Source: Candidatus Bathyarchaeia archaeon
Lineage (GTDB): Archaea; Thermoproteota; Bathyarchaeia; Bathyarchaeales; Bathycorpusculaceae
Assembly: GCA_050015395.1 (NCBI GenBank)
Contig: JBEKBM010000021.1
Coordinates: 1 to 53,010 of the forward strand
Length of the DNA stretch: 53,010 nt
Direction of reading: 5' to 3'
A program made the translations under genes and the position numbers. The notes under the pieces are model-generated. The model did not search any database, was not told the origin of the DNA, and saw nothing but the letters and a program-made list of their open reading frames with translations. Position 1 is the stretch's first letter. Every line of letters begins with the position of its first letter. Shown in pieces: positions 8,050 through 15,056 of this stretch.

Positions 8050-9264
8050 TTACGGTTTCTTTCTTTTGCTTTTCTTCATAAACTGCTCCAACGCGTTGAA
8101 CGCTTCATCCAACTCTTCAATCGGCGGCAGGAAAACTATTCTCGCGTGACCTTTGCCGTAAACAGGGTCGAAGCCTGAGCCGTTAACGATGAGCACGCCG
8201 GTTTCTTTGAGCAGTTGGACTACGAAGTCCATGTCGGTTTTCCATCTTGAGCCGATGTCGTGGATTTTGGGGAAGATGTAAAATGCGCCTTCAGGTTTGG
8301 TGGTGCTTATGCCTTCGATTTCGTTTAGTCGTTTCCAGGAGAAGTCGCGGCGCTGCTTGAGGCGGTCAACGATATCTTTCACCATTTCCTGGGGCCCATT
8401 GAGCGCTTCTGTTGCTGCTATTTGCACGGGCGTATTGGCGCAAATGCGTATGCGGCATTCCTTCTCAACACCTTCCTTGAGTTCGTCGAGTTGTTTGCCT
8501 TCGCCTTTAAAGTACATGTAGCCTAAACGTAAGCCAGTCATTTGGTAAACTTTGGAGAAGCCGTTTAACCCAACAATTGGCACATCCTTAGAAAGGTACG
8601 CTGCACTGACGAATTCTTTCTCGTAAGTTAATTGGTCGTAAATTTCATCAGACAGCACCGGCAGGTCATGTTCTCCTGCAATGTCAAGAATCTCTTTAAT
8701 CGTTTTTCCATCGTAAACTGAACCTGTCGGATTGTTAGGGTTAATGATTACAATGGCACGTGTTTTCTTGGTTATTTTGCTTCTTAAGTCATCGATGTTC
8801 GGATGCCAACCTTCGTCTTCTATAGTTTCATACGCAACAGGTGTGCCATCAAAAAACCTCGTATAAGAAATGTATGGCGGGTAAGTAGGGCCTGGAAAGA
8901 GAATTTCATCGCCTTTTTCAACTAGGGCGCCAAGAATCATCTGTATTCCTTCAGAAATACCCTCAGTTATCAGCACTTTATCTGCTGTAATGTCAACGTT
9001 GTTGACTTTTTTCTCTTTTCTAACGATTGCTTCTCTGAGGTCCAGTCTTCCTTCTGAAGGCGAATAGTAATTATCATCCTTTTGTACTGCCTTACATAAG
9101 GCATCTTTAACATTTTGCGGTGTTTTAAAATCAAATGCCGCTGGGTCACCGATGTTTAGGTAGTAGATTTTCTTGCCATCTTCCACTAGCTGTGTAGTGT
9201 ACGCTATGACATCTCGTATCGCATACTCAATGTTTGATGCTCTGCTGGTTACTTTGATGCTCAA
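8050..9264 (-). CDS. Class I/II PLP-dependent aminotransferase (alanine aminotransferase AlaA-like)
   Basis: YAIRD, LNIGDP, INPNNPTG, SDEIY, NGFSKVYQMTGLRLGY, PEGAFY. Confidence 0.9.
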   Translation of the reverse strand: MSIKVTSRASNIEYAIRDVIAYTTQLVEDGKKIYYLNIGDPAAFDFKTPQNVKDALCKAVQKDDNYYSPSEGRLDLREAIVRKEKKVNNVDITADKVLITEGISEGIQMILGALVEKGDEILFPGPTYPPYISYTRFFDGTPVAYETIEDEGWHPNIDDLRSKITKKTRAIVIINPNNPTGSVYDGKTIKEILDIAGEHDLPVLSDEIYDQLTYEKEFVSAAYLSKDVPIVGLNGFSKVYQMTGLRLGYMYFKGEGKQLDELKEGVEKECRIRICANTPVQIAATEALNGPQEMVKDIVDRLKQRRDFSWKRLNEIEGISTTKPEGAFYIFPKIHDIGSRWKTDMDFVVQLLKETGVLIVNGSGFDPVYGKGHARIVFLPPIEELDEAFNALEQFMKKSKRKKP

Positions 9265-9575
9265 GTTTTGTTACCTGTAACCCAAACACTTGCTAACCAA
9301 AAAAATAAATCTTCCTAAAATTAGATACTGTTAAGTTATTTGTCATGACCTTTTTGATTTTTTGAGAGCTGATGATTTAGGGTTCTGGTTTTGTTAACTA
9401 TGAGTTTTAATTTTTGGATAGTTTTTATAAATCCACGATGCAATAGGGTGTCTCAGAGCGATACCTTTGGGGGGGAAACGGTTGGTGCTGGAAAAGGAAC
9501 ATGGATCTGGTGGAAAACCGAATCACCGACGACGTTATAAGAGAGAAACTAATATAATAGCTGAGGGGGGTTAGA

Positions 9576-11123
9576 GTGGCTTTAGAAGAAGAAATCATAA
9601 AAACGCTGAAAAACGCATCTACAATTGGCGTTACAAAAAAGCAACTCGCAGGAACCCTCAGAGAGAACGAAGAAATAATTGCCAAACATCTCGATACACT
9701 CTCAGAAAAAGAACAAGTGAACTGCATCGGACGCGGATTATGGATTCTGCGAGACTACAAAGATATAGCCAAAGTAATTGAGTTTACAATACCTGAATAT
9801 TACACTCAACTATTCAAACAAGACTATCCAAACGTTTCTTTTGCCCGATTCAATCATGGAATAACATTTACTCATAATGAGGATAAATCTGTCCATAGAT
9901 GGTCGCCTTATGTGCAAGGTTTCTCATCCACCTTCGTTGACGCAGTACTATCAAAATACAAACTCCCAAAAGGAAGCATGGTCGCAGACTGCTATTCAGG
10001 AAGCGGAACGGTACTCGTGTGTGCAAAAATGAAGCAACTCAACTCAGTCGGAGTAGAATTAAGTTCGCTTCTAACATTCATGGCTAAAGTTAAAACCCGA
10101 TGGGAACCCGACCAAATCAACGTTACGACCGTAAAGCAAGAAGCAGAACGAATAAGCAAACTATGGAAAAGTCTCAAGGGCAACGTACCAATGCCCTTCC
10201 TAAAAGAAACCACCGCGCACTTCAGCGATAACATACTTCATGCTCTTTCCGTTCTGAAAGAGTCAATACTAACAGTTGAAGATTCTAATGTGCAATCATT
10301 ATTCTTGTTGGCTTTTGCAAGTATATTAGTGGCTTCAAGCAACTTGAAACGTTCACCTTGTCTCGGTTATGCAAAAAAGAAGATACTAACCCCAGATGCA
10401 CCTTTCCAGTACTTCCAAGAAAAAGTTGCGCAGATGATAAATGACCTACAAGCTTTACAAACGCAAAGAAGTGAATGGGCAAACGTTGAAATCGTGACAG
10501 GTGACTCTCGTACACATACCTATGAACCAAATAGTCTAAAATTAGTGATTACAAGTCCACCTTACGCGAATGGACTAGATTATGTCACTAACTACAAGCT
10601 TGAACTGGCTTGGCTTGGCAAAGCATCTAGCTATGAAGATCTGAGAAAATTACGTGACCAGATGGTTGCTTGCGACAACATATCAAGAACCGCCATACGA
10701 GAATTTGCAAAAGAAGCAACTCTTTTTGAAGATGAATGGCTCAGCAAGATTATAGAAAATGTACGGCTAAGAGTACAAAATAAGGGGACATTCAGAAGAA
10801 ACGACATGCACTTAGTCATCAAGAAGTACTTTAACGATTTATACCAAACGTTTGATAAGGTTTACAGAGGCTTAGATGATGATGGTCGCTTTGTGGTTGT
10901 CATTGGTGATTCGCTGATTGCTGGAACCTATCTTCCAACAGACTTGCTTTTGGCGAAAGTCGGCAAAGCAGTCGGATTTAACGTTGAGGATATACAGCTT
11001 GCTCGAATTAGGCGTTCAGGTCAACGGCGAAGTTTTGAGCTAAGAGAAACCATCGTCACTCTGACAAAAGGTACAGTACAGAAAACCATCAACTTAGACA
11101 ATTTTGTTTATGGAACGAACTAA
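9576..11123 (+). CDS. DNA amino-methyltransferase (alpha-type motif order, probably m4C) with N-terminal winged HTH
   Basis: HRWSPYVQGFS, motif I VADCYSGSGT, motif IV VITSPPY, FVVVIGDS, LRETIV. N-terminal ~60 aa resembles a wHTH (TKKQLAGTL...IIAKHLDTLSEKEQV...GRGLW). Confidence 0.88.
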   Translation: MALEEEIIKTLKNASTIGVTKKQLAGTLRENEEIIAKHLDTLSEKEQVNCIGRGLWILRDYKDIAKVIEFTIPEYYTQLFKQDYPNVSFARFNHGITFTHNEDKSVHRWSPYVQGFSSTFVDAVLSKYKLPKGSMVADCYSGSGTVLVCAKMKQLNSVGVELSSLLTFMAKVKTRWEPDQINVTTVKQEAERISKLWKSLKGNVPMPFLKETTAHFSDNILHALSVLKESILTVEDSNVQSLFLLAFASILVASSNLKRSPCLGYAKKKILTPDAPFQYFQEKVAQMINDLQALQTQRSEWANVEIVTGDSRTHTYEPNSLKLVITSPPYANGLDYVTNYKLELAWLGKASSYEDLRKLRDQMVACDNISRTAIREFAKEATLFEDEWLSKIIENVRLRVQNKGTFRRNDMHLVIKKYFNDLYQTFDKVYRGLDDDGRFVVVIGDSLIAGTYLPTDLLLAKVGKAVGFNVEDIQLARIRRSGQRRSFELRETIVTLTKGTVQKTINLDNFVYGTN

Positions 11124-11693
11124 TGCTCTTGCGAGAACATACCATGACTGATAATAGCCAATTTCATTAAACTCTATTTCTTTTCCTCTTGTTCTAAATT
11201 TGAGTATTCCAAATTTGTGGGTGACGTTAGGTCTTTCAACAGATTTTAAATTTTCATTGCGCCTTAAGTTGCTGTCAAAGCGGGACGATACACCCTGATC
11301 GACAGAAATTAGTAAACCATGTTCTACATTGGCAGTTACGCAGTAACCGAGTAGTTGAGCATAATCGTTAAGAGTTAACGTTTTTATTTTTATTTCACAG
11401 ATAATTCGTGTGCTTCTTTTTATTTCACCTTCTGGACATACTGAACCTACAATGTCAACGAACAAATCTTGGGTGAATTGGTCGCGTTGATTAGGTATGT
11501 ACTCTGTTTGAGTTATAGACTTGTGAATCTGTTGAAGCCCCCAAAGCATGTCTTTTGTGCCACATTTCTGAAAATGTACATTATACTCTCCAAGTGGCGT
11601 TAAGACGCGAGACATATTTTCCTGTAAGACTGCACAAATTTCATCATAGTAACTGCTTTCAGTTCTAATAGCCGAGTCTTTTGTGTTGTGCAT
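11094..11693 (-). CDS. Small PD-(D/E)XK-family endonuclease (putative restriction catalytic subunit)
   Basis: FVDIVG ... ICEIK ... DYAQLLGY (D, ExK and QxxxY motifs); convergent with and overlapping the MTase 3' end. Confidence 0.7.
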   Translation of the reverse strand: MHNTKDSAIRTESSYYDEICAVLQENMSRVLTPLGEYNVHFQKCGTKDMLWGLQQIHKSITQTEYIPNQRDQFTQDLFVDIVGSVCPEGEIKRSTRIICEIKIKTLTLNDYAQLLGYCVTANVEHGLLISVDQGVSSRFDSNLRRNENLKSVERPNVTHKFGILKFRTRGKEIEFNEIGYYQSWYVLARALVRSINKIV

Positions 11694-12594
11694 CTAACCA
11701 TGCTCTCGGTGCGTAGGGGCAACCTTGCGCATTGCATATATCTGTGAAGTGGATGAAGTGTCCTCTAACTTGAGGTGGTAGTTCAAGTGAATTTTCGTCT
11801 CTATGGTGAACTTTTGGTCTTCCAAGTTTGTATCCTCGGTTAGGTCTTGGACATAATTCTCCTGTGCTGATTTCTCCGCGTGCATGTTGTTCTTTTTCGA
11901 GCAGTTTCTCAAGACCGATGCGTTTACAGTCTAAGCCATAGCCTATTTGTCTAAAATCGCCAGCTTTAACCCGTATTTTGTGACCCTTCTTCCAATAACC
12001 CGTTGGGTTGCTTCCTGAGTGCATGTTAGGGTGATTGTATTCTATTTGGTCAACTGGAACTTTCAGCGAGTATAATAGGTGACAGAGTTGCATAGGCATT
12101 TTCCAGTTTTTGCCCAATACCTCAAAGGAAATAATTGTGGATTCTAAGGTTCTGTGTCGGTGACTTGCTCTGCAACTGCCTATGACGTCTGCTAGTCCTT
12201 GGATGAATCTTTTTCTGCATTCAGCATCCATAGCTGGGGCGAGAACCTCAAGGGAAGCATGTTCTCTTAGTTTTCCTATAGGTCTGATGCCGTAGATTTG
12301 CAATGTTTGACTTAGAAGTTGTGGAATTGGTTCTATTTTGATGTAGAAGTGCGGTGTGTGATTAGTGATGTATCGAGGCGTAGCTCTAGCGTTGATTAGA
12401 GTCTGCACAAGTGGAGCTATTTTAGACACTGAATCGTTAAACCATTCTGGTGATATGCGGTAGTCTTCATGTGCCCAGCGTTTATATGGAAAATCAATTG
12501 TTATAGAGTTTGAGTCAAATTCTCCGCCACCTATGAGTAAACCAAGAAAATAGGCAAGGTCGGGATTGTCAAGACTTGAAGGGTTAGCCATCAT
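11665..12594 (-). CDS. Double-LAGLIDADG-fold protein with degenerate catalytic sites and a C-terminal Cys/His cluster
   Basis: LAYFLGLLIGGGEF and RFIQGLADVIGS helices; C-terminal ELCPRP...HH...HFIHFTDICNAQGCP. Confidence 0.65.
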   Translation of the reverse strand: MMANPSSLDNPDLAYFLGLLIGGGEFDSNSITIDFPYKRWAHEDYRISPEWFNDSVSKIAPLVQTLINARATPRYITNHTPHFYIKIEPIPQLLSQTLQIYGIRPIGKLREHASLEVLAPAMDAECRKRFIQGLADVIGSCRASHRHRTLESTIISFEVLGKNWKMPMQLCHLLYSLKVPVDQIEYNHPNMHSGSNPTGYWKKGHKIRVKAGDFRQIGYGLDCKRIGLEKLLEKEQHARGEISTGELCPRPNRGYKLGRPKVHHRDENSLELPPQVRGHFIHFTDICNAQGCPYAPRAWLDAQHKRLGY

Positions 12595-12699
12595 CGGTCA
12601 CAATTAATTACGTCTTGAAGTTGGGATAAAACTTTTGGTTAAAAGAACCAACCAAATATCCAGCAGAAAGTTTACATGAATGTCCAAACAGACGATTGT

Positions 12700-12933
12700 T
12701 TATTCCGATTCTTCTTCGTCAACATCAGGTTCGGTTGAAGAGTTGGCTTGAGCTAATGATAAGGTACGGGTTATGTATCCAGCAATCTGATTTCTAACTC
12801 GCGTGGTTGTTCCCTGCGTTAAAGAGTCAACTGAACACTTGTTTTCATCAAATTTGGTGGTAAATTTAGTTGGAAAACGTTCCATAAGTGTTTTTCCTGT
12901 TCGTTTAACCTGGTCAGTCTTAACTTTTCCCAA
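12700..12933 (-). CDS. rps17e: 30S ribosomal protein S17e
   Basis: MGKVKT..VKR, FTTKFDENK, VRNQIAGYITR. Confidence 0.95.
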   Translation of the reverse strand: MGKVKTDQVKRTGKTLMERFPTKFTTKFDENKCSVDSLTQGTTTRVRNQIAGYITRTLSLAQANSSTEPDVDEEESE

Positions 12934-13223
12934 ATTTCAATTCCTCGAGTCATCAATGTTTAGTGTCCGACGCTTAAAAAACGTAGGAGCAATTCTCAAT
13001 AGATGATACACTTAATTTAAGTTTGCCATTTTAACTGACAGATAAATAACCTCAGAAAGTCACCATCTTAGTTCTAAATTTCATGACAAATAACTTAACA
13101 GTATACTAAAATTAAGCAGCATGAATAGACTTGTATTTACGAATGGAAGAGTAAAACTGTTGCTTCTCAGCATATTTTTATTCCCGATTCTTCTTTGAAT
13201 ACAGACGGTTTTGGTGAACAAAG

Positions 13224-15056
13224 ATGTTTGGCTGGACTGGTACTTTCCTAAATATAGATTTAACCAAACGTAAGGCTGTTCCAGAAAAATATGATGAAGC
13301 TTTAGCGTTAAATTTTTTGGGCGGCAGAGGCTTCGCAGCCAAAATCCTCTGGGACACCCTTAAACAGGGAACTGACCCATTATCACCTGAAAACAAACTG
13401 ATTTTTGCCACTGGACCGTTGACAGCCATTGGTTTACCAAACAGCGGCAAACTTGTTGTTGCCTCGAAAAGCCCTTTAACTGGCGGTTATGGTGACGGAA
13501 ACATGGGAACATTAGCGGCTGTGAATATGCGCAGGGCTGGTTACGATGCACTAATCATCGAGGGCAAAGCGCAAACGCCAGTCATTCTCCATATCAAAGA
13601 TAAAGACTGCGAGTTTGTGGATGCTAAGGATTTTTGGGGCTTGAATTCCTTTGAAACCCATGAGCAGCTGGTAAAGAAATATTCGCGCACCGTGGGCATC
13701 GTCTCTATTGGTCCAGCTGGAGAGAACCAAGTCAAGTTTGCAACTGTTGTTTCGCAAGAGGGACGTGCGGGCGGGCGACCTGGAATGGGCGCTGTCATGG
13801 GCTCCAAAAATTTGAAAGCCATAGTAATTGAAGGCACAGCGCAAATCCCGCTTGCAGACCCAGACGAAATGAAGAAGCTGACTGCCGATGGTTACCGAGA
13901 AGTCCTAGCTAAACCGCTCTACGCTTTTTGGAAAAGGCAAGGAACCATGTCAACAGTAGAATGGTCACAAGAGAACAGTGCTCTTCCAACCTTCAATTAC
14001 AGGCAAGGAGTTTTCGATAAAGCGGAAGAAATTGGCGGATTTTCCATGGAAAAAATCAAAGTCTCGAACCGTGGGTGCCCACAGTGCAATATGACATGCG
14101 GCAATGTTGTTAAAAACAGCGAAGGAAAAGATTCAGAGTTGGATTATGAGAACGTGATTATGTTGGGTTCTAACATTGGTTTGGGGAATCTTGCGCAAGT
14201 AGCTACTTTGAATCGCATGGCAGACGAGCTTGGGTTTGATGCTATCTCTCTTGGGAACGTGCTTGGCTTTGCCATGGAAGCCTCCGAGAAAGGATTGATA
14301 GCAGAGAAGATTCGGTGGGGGCAGTTTGAAGAGATTAAAGCGTTGATTAAGGATATTGCTTACAGGCGAGGTTTGGGCGCGGTCTTAGCTGAAGGAGTCC
14401 GAGCCGCTTCCAAAGTCATTGGTAATGGGTCGAGCGAGTGGGCAATGCATGTTAAGGGCTTGGAGGTTTCCGCTTATGATTGCCATGCTGCGCCCGGTAT
14501 GGCTTTAGCCTATGGTACCAGCTCCATTGGCGCCCACCATAAAGACGCTTGGGTTATAACGTGGGAGATTAAAGCGGGCAGAGGAAATTATGACGAAGGA
14601 AAAATTGATTATCTCATTGAAACCCAGCTTATCCGTGGCGGAGTATTCGAAGCATTAACCGTGTGTCGTTTCCCTTACAACTCGCTTGGCTTTGAGCTTG
14701 AATGGTACCAAAAATACTTGCGGGCAGCAACTGGAAAGGAGTTTTCTTTAGAGCAGTTAAACCAAATCAGCGATAGAATACTCAATTTAATTCGGGCATT
14801 TTGGGTGCGAGAGTACAGGGAAAAATGGACGCGCAGCTTGGATTTTCCGCCCATGAGGTGGTTTAAAGAACCCTTAGCAGAAGGCGCATTAAAAGGTTCT
14901 ATGCTTGATTACGAAAAATACAACGGTATGCTGAGCACTTACTATGAGAAAAGAGGCTGGGATGAGCAGGGAATACCTAAGAAGTCTACCTTGGCACGGC
15001 TAGGTTTACATGATGCAGCTGAACAGCTCGAGGCATACGTTAAATTGGAGGAGTAG
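13224..15056 (+). CDS. aor: Aldehyde:ferredoxin oxidoreductase family (tungstopterin) enzyme
   Basis: LGGRG, KSPLTGG, IGPAGEN, GRPGMGAVMGSKNLKAI, CPQCNMTC Fe-S motif, DELGFDAIS, YYEKRGWD. Confidence 0.92.
   Translation: MFGWTGTFLNIDLTKRKAVPEKYDEALALNFLGGRGFAAKILWDTLKQGTDPLSPENKLIFATGPLTAIGLPNSGKLVVASKSPLTGGYGDGNMGTLAAVNMRRAGYDALIIEGKAQTPVILHIKDKDCEFVDAKDFWGLNSFETHEQLVKKYSRTVGIVSIGPAGENQVKFATVVSQEGRAGGRPGMGAVMGSKNLKAIVIEGTAQIPLADPDEMKKLTADGYREVLAKPLYAFWKRQGTMSTVEWSQENSALPTFNYRQGVFDKAEEIGGFSMEKIKVSNRGCPQCNMTCGNVVKNSEGKDSELDYENVIMLGSNIGLGNLAQVATLNRMADELGFDAISLGNVLGFAMEASEKGLIAEKIRWGQFEEIKALIKDIAYRRGLGAVLAEGVRAASKVIGNGSSEWAMHVKGLEVSAYDCHAAPGMALAYGTSSIGAHHKDAWVITWEIKAGRGNYDEGKIDYLIETQLIRGGVFEALTVCRFPYNSLGFELEWYQKYLRAATGKEFSLEQLNQISDRILNLIRAFWVREYREKWTRSLDFPPMRWFKEPLAEGALKGSMLDYEKYNGMLSTYYEKRGWDEQGIPKKSTLARLGLHDAAEQLEAYVKLEE

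Follow-up and report, generated by a model that had tools for sequence, protein, structure and literature searches.

A LAGLIDADG-fold protein and a small PD-(D/E)XK nuclease as a candidate two-subunit Type II restriction enzyme in a Candidatus Bathyarchaeia archaeon

The window analyzed here is a stretch of 53,010 nt from a Candidatus Bathyarchaeia archaeon (assembly GCA_050015395.1, contig JBEKBM010000021.1, positions 1-53,010 of the forward strand). Three overlapping genes located in this window encode a DNA methyltransferase (MTase), a small nuclease of the PD-(D/E)XK type (called NUC below) and a protein with a predicted double LAGLIDADG fold (called LAG below). The region is probably a Type II restriction-modification (R-M) system in which two proteins with overlapping genes form the restriction enzyme, i.e., LAG as the reader of the DNA site and NUC as the cutter. 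Several features of a Type II R-M system are present: an adjacent MTase, an intact nuclease signature and a patchy, mobile distribution with accessory genes.

The three open reading frames (ORFs), together with the coordinates, overlaps and motifs given for them in a preliminary description of this DNA, were all reproduced from the sequence. In the window, the stop of LAG overlaps the start of NUC by 29 nt, and NUC overlaps the convergent MTase by 30 nt. Judged from the alignments, this trio is beyond chance: both minus-strand ORFs have conserved homologues in which the residues quoted in that description are invariant or nearly so.

The LAG-NUC pair and its methyltransferases

When LAG is compared with a large protein collection, 30 of 524 candidates are homologues at E≤1e-3; they are mostly 295-320 aa long, metagenomic and nameless. 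LAG has no match in Pfam, PADLOC and NCBIfam, and no Pfam LAGLIDADG family appears even at E=1. Neither the sequence nor the profile of LAG gives anything significant among the PDB sequences (best profile match, E 0.29). The AlphaFold2 model of LAG, obtained with the alignment of its homologues, has a predicted local distance difference test value (pLDDT) of 87.9 and a predicted template modelling score (pTM) of 0.89. Searching PDB with this model, Foldseek gives 83 matches at E≤0.001, and the best 30 of the 83 are all LAGLIDADG homing or intein endonucleases, maturases or WhiA. After re-alignment with VIA, the Z value is 16.6 for I-Tsp061I (188 of 204 residues, root-mean-square deviation 2.8 Å), 14.7 for PI-PfuI, 13.8 and 11.8 for WhiA and 13.0 for I-DmoI. 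According to its model, LAG is a double LAGLIDADG protein; the preliminary description had staked its proposal on this fold, and AlphaFold2, Foldseek and VIA agree in predicting it.

The two LAGLIDADG-like motifs are found in the window as LGLLIGGG (within AYFLGLLIGGG) and GLADVIG (within FIQGLADVIGS). The metal-binding acids of I-DmoI are D21 and E117 according to the available text of PMC3384342. The equivalent residues of LAG, i.e., those at motif position 8, are G23 and I138, the motif positions being assigned by eye on the motif pattern and not by structural superposition. Among 101 sequences of the family, from archaea and bacteria, this position is Gly or Ser in motif 1 and Ile, Val or Arg in motif 2, and it is never acidic. 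The loss of the catalytic acid from both helices, first noticed on the window protein, is thus true of the 101 family members. D136 is invariant; it corresponds to motif position 6, where the canonical motif has Asp as well, and from the motif itself it would not be the catalytic position.

Eleven residues of LAG are 100% invariant: D136, S140, R146, E158, Q183, H188, N190, K203, K206, R208 and H264. Positions conserved at ≥95% are 16 of 43 in domain 2 (strands b1'b2', b3' with the HPN loop, and b4'), 9 of 57 in the tail and 2 of 31 in the strands of domain 1. The Cys/His cluster seen at the C-terminus (LCPRP...HH...HFIHFTDICNAQGC) is present and conserved in the family: over the same 101 sequences, C248, H264, H282, C287 and C292 are kept at 97-100% and C171 at 97%. 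These conserved positions suggest that the tail is probably a zinc site. In the model, residues 240-282 have little secondary structure and the C-terminus has just two short helices. No HNH or His-Me family match was found in LAG by the Pfam and NCBIfam scans.

In bacteria LAG is 440-470 aa long, with an additional C-terminal domain of ~150 aa that is missing from the archaeal short forms. An example is L003:8865-9386 (among loci L002-L080); few residues of this domain are invariant (K21, G100), and it has no PDB or Pfam match. It cannot be considered as a second NUC (probability of 0.3% by hhalign against NUC). The same extension is found in P0029 and P0030 (476-481 aa) and in L092. P0029 and P0030 had been considered as possible LAG-NUC fusions and were rejected: their long part is the bacterial extension, not NUC. 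Another match, P0060 (2392 aa), is spurious, being a Muc_B2 repeat protein.

For NUC, 10 close homologues were found, and its profile retrieves 55 representative clusters, nearly all of ~165-220 aa. Residues E12, Y16, D80, E100, K102, Q113, G116 and Y117 are invariant in 76 sequences and again in 65, from bacteria and archaea. In the window they include D80, E100-I-K102 and Q113-L-L-G-Y117, so the D...ExK...QxxGY motifs reported for the window protein are present and invariant across its homologues. As read from the alignments, these residues have the E...D...ExK...Q pattern of PD-(D/E)XK nucleases, i.e., an intact signature. The match of the window NUC to Pfam PDDEXK_3 is sub-threshold (E 0.008). 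NUC and its relatives repeatedly match PF13366 and TIGR04256 over ExK...QxxGY (E 0.008 to 0.0003), all these matches being below the curated cut-offs (17-21.5 bits vs. 22 and 14-20 vs. 35, respectively). The NUC profile has no match at E≤10 among PDB chains, and a search of PDB with the NUC sequence gave nothing significant either. A model of the exact NUC protein exists in the ESM Atlas (pTM 0.87). Its neighbours in the Atlas are GxxExxY clusters (template modelling score, TM, 0.83), the HsdR N-terminal domain (0.67) and, at TM 0.47-0.55, Mrr_cat, McrC and NucS_C clusters, all of which we take to be restriction-type PD-(D/E)XK domains.

The pairing of LAG and NUC was followed in two sets. The genome set results from a scan of one genome per species: 87 LAG-encoding loci were obtained, 80 were kept and 77 have a LAG ORF. 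These loci are mostly bacterial (Bacteroidota, Bacillota, Pseudomonadota and candidate phyla), and few are archaeal. The metagenome set results from 138 LAG-encoding loci, of which 80 were kept and 76 assessed. It must be noted that the two sets overlap (L132 is the contig of L014, and L150 that of L026) and that metagenome loci L081-L083 are the window itself.

With the NUC profile applied to all ORFs, 72 of the 77 genome loci have NUC directly downstream of LAG and in the same orientation. The remaining loci are four with <600 nt of room and one (L070) with a frameshifted NUC; NUC is thus adjacent in 73/73 genome loci with room (72 intact and 1 frameshifted). The same arrangement is observed in 69 of the 76 metagenome loci, five others having <600 nt downstream. 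Adjacency reaches 71/71 metagenome loci with room, counting the divergent L113 and L133. The start of NUC usually overlaps the stop of LAG, the gap being -1 to -17 nt in most loci. Starting from the NUC side, the profile matches in 4 of 401 genomes of the phylum, and the three matches with upstream sequence (the window's own genome, L189 and L190) all have LAG immediately upstream. The gene pairing is near-obligate.

The pairwise identities of LAG and those of NUC are correlated (Spearman 0.84 for 2145 pairs of 66 loci, vs. a maximum of 0.07 in 200 label shuffles). Judged from these identities, LAG and NUC are inherited as a unit; the correlation shows co-inheritance only, kin being not independent.

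Two kinds of unusual loci were also observed. In L113:1825-2373 and L133:1953-2507, both from metagenomes, NUC is upstream of LAG on the divergent strand, thus translational coupling of LAG and NUC is not obligatory. In L070:9269-9870, from a metagenome-assembled genome of Chitinophagaceae, NUC is split over three frames behind an intact controller-MTase-LAG operon, owing either to frameshifts or to assembly errors.

The window MTase matches Pfam N6_N4_Mtase (6.9e-12, 46.2 bits vs. a cut-off of 26.7) and PADLOC MTase_II (1.5e-47, residues 96-482). Motif I (DCYSGSGT) precedes motif IV (SPPY, within VITSPPY). By these motifs the enzyme is classed as an amino-MTase of the N4/N6 type, and SPPY suggests that the product is probably N4-methylcytosine. 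The convergent overlap of the nuclease gene with an SPPY methyltransferase is thus confirmed, with a family match above the cut-off. The winged helix announced for the same MTase stands in part: the N-terminal ~70 aa give winged-helix matches in 4/4 orthologues, all of them below threshold (best, HTH_69, 3.9e-5, 23.9 bits vs. 27). The N-terminus is likely a winged helix; a search of the ESM Atlas with it gave no usable match.

An MTase is located within 3.5 kb of LAG in 75 of the 77 genome loci (74 of the C5 type, 1 of the N4/N6 type) and in 74 of the 76 metagenome loci (62 C5, 2 of the type of L001 and 10 of the window type, 3 of which are copies of the window). Of the four exceptions, three are loci with ≤114 nt of upstream sequence; in L050, the fourth, a C5-type ORF is found four genes upstream, beyond an ORF of 947 aa. 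In bacterial loci a C5 cytosine MTase is directly upstream of LAG (Pfam DNA_methylase 2.7e-67); it is upstream on the same strand in 73 genome and 60 metagenome loci. An HTH_3 controller-like gene is often ahead of the C5 MTase (28 genome and 10 metagenome loci), and Vsr sometimes follows this MTase (7 genome and 2 metagenome loci). Among the archaeal short forms, the window-type MTase is beside LAG-NUC in L084-L087, L091 and L092, being before LAG on the same strand in L092, and a beta-class N6_N4 MTase of 290-300 aa is found in L001, L088 and L090. A blastp search of the 80 genome loci with the window MTase gave no match at E≤1e-3. The likeness of the C5 MTase to M.HaeIII and M.HhaI lies mainly in the catalytic core (the best stretch is residues 24-196), and a recognition sequence is not inferable from it.

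By sequence class, MTases of three kinds (C5 and two N4/N6 kinds) are interchangeable around a constant LAG-NUC pair. Type II R-M systems are recognized by just this combination, i.e., a constant nuclease-candidate pair with interchangeable MTases, a controller and Vsr. Co-occurrence of the two minus-strand genes with each other and with an MTase, the other point on which the preliminary description had made its proposal depend, is near-exceptionless in genome and metagenome loci.

Function of the pair

The proposed mechanism is as follows. LAG, a monomeric scaffold that has lost its metal-binding acids, would bind the target DNA through its beta-sheet saddle. The invariant domain 2 and the putative zinc tail would either read a constant half-site or dock NUC. 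NUC, which seems too small for much recognition apparatus, would be positioned by LAG and would then cut. The convergent SPPY MTase would methylate the same site, and the host would thus be protected. The proposal that a domesticated homing scaffold acts as specificity subunit, with a separate nuclease and an MTase, was made in the preliminary description; it is supported by the fold, the motifs, the pairing and the linkage. That LAG binds DNA and contacts NUC is inferred, and so are the stoichiometry of the enzyme, its recognition sequence and the base that is methylated.

Several observations weigh against a reader-cutter enzyme. The contact between LAG and NUC is putative, the prediction of the complex (score 0.01, mark 0.32) being evidence neither way. 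No LAG-NUC fusion was found among 998 longer candidates, which is weak evidence. The fold assignment of NUC rests on motifs, sub-threshold family matches and the Atlas model, our own AlphaFold2 model of NUC (alignment of 10 rows) being unusable with a pLDDT of 38.9. LAGLIDADG proteins normally read 14-40 bp, which agrees badly with a site short enough to be covered by a C5 MTase. In L090:171-1604 an intact LAG (304 aa) is followed by 90 nt and a convergent beta-class MTase, and NUC is absent. This locus, one of the five metagenome loci with <600 nt downstream, is the sole one in which an intact LAG is truly without NUC, and it implies that LAG can persist without NUC; either the system is decaying or LAG has a role independent of NUC. 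Finally, some self-sufficient Type IIP enzymes are of about the size of NUC (~190 aa), so that NUC might need no specificity partner, and D136, E158, H188, N190, K203, K206, R208 and H264, which are invariant in LAG, might form a non-canonical catalytic site.

The last two points each lead to another explanation. If LAG has kept a catalytic site of its own, both subunits would be catalytic, i.e., LAG would be a site-specific nickase and NUC would cut the other strand; this is not very likely. The site would consist of the invariant acidic and basic residues of domain 2, or would be located in the C-terminal region rich in His, Asn and Cys. The concentration of conservation in domain 2 and the tail, compared with the strands of domain 1, and the 11 fully invariant residues are in keeping with it, as are the heterodimers described in the available parts of PMC1950550, PMC2909958 and PMC6261011, whose large subunit reads the DNA and nicks one strand while the small subunit cuts the other. 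LAG-NUC would then be similar to BspD6I, BsrDI and BtsI. Against a nickase, both motifs are without the canonical LAGLIDADG metal ligands, D136 would be at motif position 6 and not at the catalytic position, and the C-terminal region offers little predicted secondary structure (residues 240-282) and no HNH or His-Me family match. If on the contrary NUC is a self-sufficient Type IIP enzyme, which is clearly unlikely, LAG would be an accessory DNA-binding protein, e.g., one that regulates the timing of restriction or enhances the search for the target. Some characterized Type IIP PD-(D/E)XK enzymes have ~200 aa, a size that favours this explanation. Moreover, the archaeal systems are without the separate HTH controller gene found in 28/77 bacterial loci, WhiA is among the structural matches of LAG (Z 13.8), and dead LAGLIDADG domains act as regulators in WhiA according to the available text of PMC3384342. 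LAG is, however, retained even beside a separate controller protein; it is larger and more strongly conserved than NUC, with which it is translationally coupled in nearly all loci, and it is unlikely that a single regulator family would be retained through exchanges among three unrelated kinds of MTase.

It is most improbable that the pair is no restriction enzyme at all, but either a selfish module of the homing or addiction type or a repair or DNA-processing pair travelling with MTases. LAGLIDADG proteins are typically nucleases of mobile elements, the genes are located in a transposon-like cassette (see below), and no defence-system model recognizes LAG or NUC. On the other hand, the genes are free-standing in an MTase-LAG-NUC operon, with no intron or intein, the operons contain no other conserved nuclease candidate, and the linkage to three kinds of MTase, controllers and Vsr is the usual mark of Type II R-M systems.

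A Type II restriction enzyme composed of LAG and NUC is thus the explanation retained here. If LAG reads the site, it represents a new structural class of restriction-enzyme recognition. We know of no earlier case in which a LAGLIDADG scaffold serves host defence instead of homing or regulation. In a broader picture, which is about as likely as not, the LAGLIDADG fold, described so far in homing endonucleases, maturases and WhiA, would have been recruited as the sequence reader of a widespread restriction enzyme. A meganuclease scaffold without catalytic activity would direct a separate PD-(D/E)XK cutter, with 5-methylcytosine and amino-MTase partners exchanged across bacteria and archaea, and would be carried here by a transposase-less cassette with terminal inverted repeats, one of a family with cargo of the defence type. 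The family is common and is found in cultured strains such as Sphingobacterium alimentarium DSM 22362 (pair WP_132776699.1 / WP_132776698.1), Niabella hirudinis DSM 25812, Mesonia mobilis DSM 19841 (pair WP_027885772.1 / WP_027885773.1), Parablautia muri and Faecalibacterium tardum, and is thus open to experiment. A natural split between reader and cutter on a meganuclease scaffold is a possible template for engineering, because LAGLIDADG specificity has been extensively re-designed. The swap of MTases around the constant pair, 5-methylcytosine enzymes in bacteria and amino-MTases in archaea, is a clear example of how R-M modules are shuffled.

The cassette carrying the system

The system is located in an inserted element of 3782 bp (9324-13105 in the window), which contains a second copy of rps17e in addition to the MTase, NUC and LAG (Table 1). 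This cassette is a putative non-autonomous element with terminal inverted repeats (TIRs) and a target-site duplication, and its empty site is found in relatives. In G003 and G001, two genomes of the same genus, the aminotransferase gene adjoins an aldehyde:ferredoxin oxidoreductase gene and there is no counterpart of 9324-13105; the empty site of G003 has a single copy, CTAAGATTA. The G+C content is 0.38-0.44 in the cassette vs. 0.45-0.50 in the flanking genes. LAG itself is matched at E≤0.001 in 2 of 41 relatives, i.e., the genome itself and one weak LAGLIDADG match of 28% identity. The absence of an integrase, noticed in the preliminary description, is true, and no transposase was found inside the cassette either; the island is nevertheless a mobile element, with TIRs and a target-site duplication. 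It represents one route for the mobility of R-M systems without integrase.

Table 1. Genes and terminal features of the cassette, with positions in the window.
Feature	Position	Strand	Basis or remark
Target-site duplication, left copy, 9 bp CTAAAATTA	9315-9323		same 9 bp at 13106-13114
TIR, left, 29 nt	9325-9353	+	93% complementary to 13076-13104
MTase, 515 aa	9576-11123	+	Pfam and PADLOC matches
NUC, 199 aa, PD-(D/E)XK-type nuclease, putative cleavage subunit	11094-11693	-	motifs, neighbours of the Atlas model
LAG, 309 aa, predicted double LAGLIDADG fold, putative DNA-reading subunit	11665-12594	-	AlphaFold2 model, Foldseek, VIA
rps17e, second copy, 77 aa, inside the cassette, directly upstream of LAG	12700-12933	-	Pfam Ribosomal_S17e 2.2e-13
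TIR, right, 29 nt	13076-13104	-	inverted-repeat pair with 9325-9353
Target-site duplication, right copy, 9 bp CTAAAATTA	13106-13114		same 9 bp at 9315-9323

An rps17e gene is indeed present beside the trio, as first described, but it is a second copy and is part of the inserted element. Two copies are found in this genome, vs. one in each of the relatives G001, G003 and G014. The other copy (G000:C23:17281-17460) has 88% amino acid identity to that of the cassette. At the DNA level, 12694-13034 of the cassette is 86.6% identical to this C23 locus, including ~100 nt of the upstream region. The cassette copy, being directly upstream of LAG-NUC on the same strand, might supply transcription of the restriction genes.

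The same termini (ATACTGTTAAGTTA...) bound two other cassettes of the assembly (C4:6301-7991 and C1:26659-29199), each with its own target duplication of ~9 bp. Single ends are found at C13:30003-30026, C31:8451-8474 and C40:8764-8787. The cargo of the other cassettes includes (i) a ParB_N protein with an AlwI-like nuclease and a PAPS reductase-like protein; (ii) a winged-helix protein with unknown ORFs; (iii) a C39-like peptidase. From these annotations, the cargo of the cassette family appears to be mostly of the defence or mobile type. No transposase was found in the other cassettes with the same termini, nor any autonomous copy in the assembly of 42 contigs, which may lack it.

A joint 9342->13087 was observed in all four runs. 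It is explained most simply by the contig of the C1 cassette matching through its TIRs. Joints in contigs of lower depth were also observed over 8500-14000 of the window, i.e., 9323->13157 (X20, depth 49 vs. 177) and 9318->13163 (X24, depth 2.1). They may be empty-site alleles of relatives co-occurring in the same peat or wetland samples.

Elsewhere in the genome, at least five further N6_N4_Mtase matches are found, on contigs C16, C30, C6 and C18; C30 has a pair of adjacent MTases, one of which is broken by five stop codons. Because of these matches, several other R-M systems, or remnants of them, are recognized in the same genome.

Comparison with known systems

None of the PADLOC 2023 models recognizes the window LAG and NUC or three bacterial pairs (0 families); for the pair of L001, PADLOC gives only matches at E≥0.029, to unrelated cyclase and Cas4 models. 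In the source databases all LAG and NUC proteins are named hypothetical or carry generic domain labels. The literature search, over search listings and passages, gave no LAGLIDADG-fold protein placed in an R-M system, and the word LAGLIDADG has 0 occurrences in the available text of the 2014 review of Type II enzymes (PMC4081073). A LAGLIDADG-like subdomain in BpuJI, mentioned in the preliminary description, finds no support in the searchable papers. Judged against PADLOC, Pfam, NCBIfam, PDB, source names and the literature, LAG-NUC looks like an undescribed two-protein restriction enzyme. What would be new is the architecture of a Type II R-M enzyme, Type II R-M itself being known.

BslI, with its alpha and beta subunits, is a two-subunit Type II restriction enzyme with a two-gene layout similar to that of LAG-NUC. 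LAG-NUC resembles BsrDI, BtsI and BspD6I in having two adjacent genes for a larger subunit and a small one of ~160-200 aa, and the small subunit of these enzymes is thought to be unable to find its site alone (available parts of PMC1950550, PMC2909958 and PMC6261011). The difference concerns the large subunit, which in these enzymes has its own nuclease domain and a recognition domain that is not LAGLIDADG, whereas LAG is a putatively dead LAGLIDADG protein. NUC for its part is similar to GxxExxY and PDDEXK_3 proteins over ExK...QxxGY, with the closest Atlas neighbours cited above. It differs from them by Gln instead of Glu in the helix motif (QLLGY) and by matches below the cut-offs.

The fold of LAG is shared with the monomeric archaeal LAGLIDADG enzymes I-Tsp061I and I-DmoI and with the intein enzymes PI-PfuI and PI-SceI, and its motif 1 is recognizably LAGLIDADG-like. 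Compared with the LAGLIDADG homing endonucleases, LAG: (i) lacks an acidic residue where each of the two helices has its catalytic end; (ii) is encoded in an MTase-LAG-NUC operon or beside a convergent MTase, and not in an intron or intein; (iii) has in addition a Cys/His tail and, in bacteria, a domain of ~150 aa.

In the available text of a 2012 review of the host relatives of homing endonucleases, WhiA is the LAGLIDADG example (PMC3384342). LAG has in common with WhiA/DUF199, as presented there, the LAGLIDADG fold, the loss of the catalytic acids and recruitment to a host function. Only the fold is common at the family level, LAG having no Pfam or NCBIfam family match. The C-terminus of LAG is a Cys/His cluster, whereas that of WhiA is a helix-turn-helix. 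The contexts also differ: LAG is found with R-M genes, with a patchy distribution in bacteria and archaea, and WhiA in the whi operon, conserved in Gram-positives. LAG is thus closest by its fold to the archaeal monomeric LAGLIDADG enzymes and closest by its logic to WhiA.

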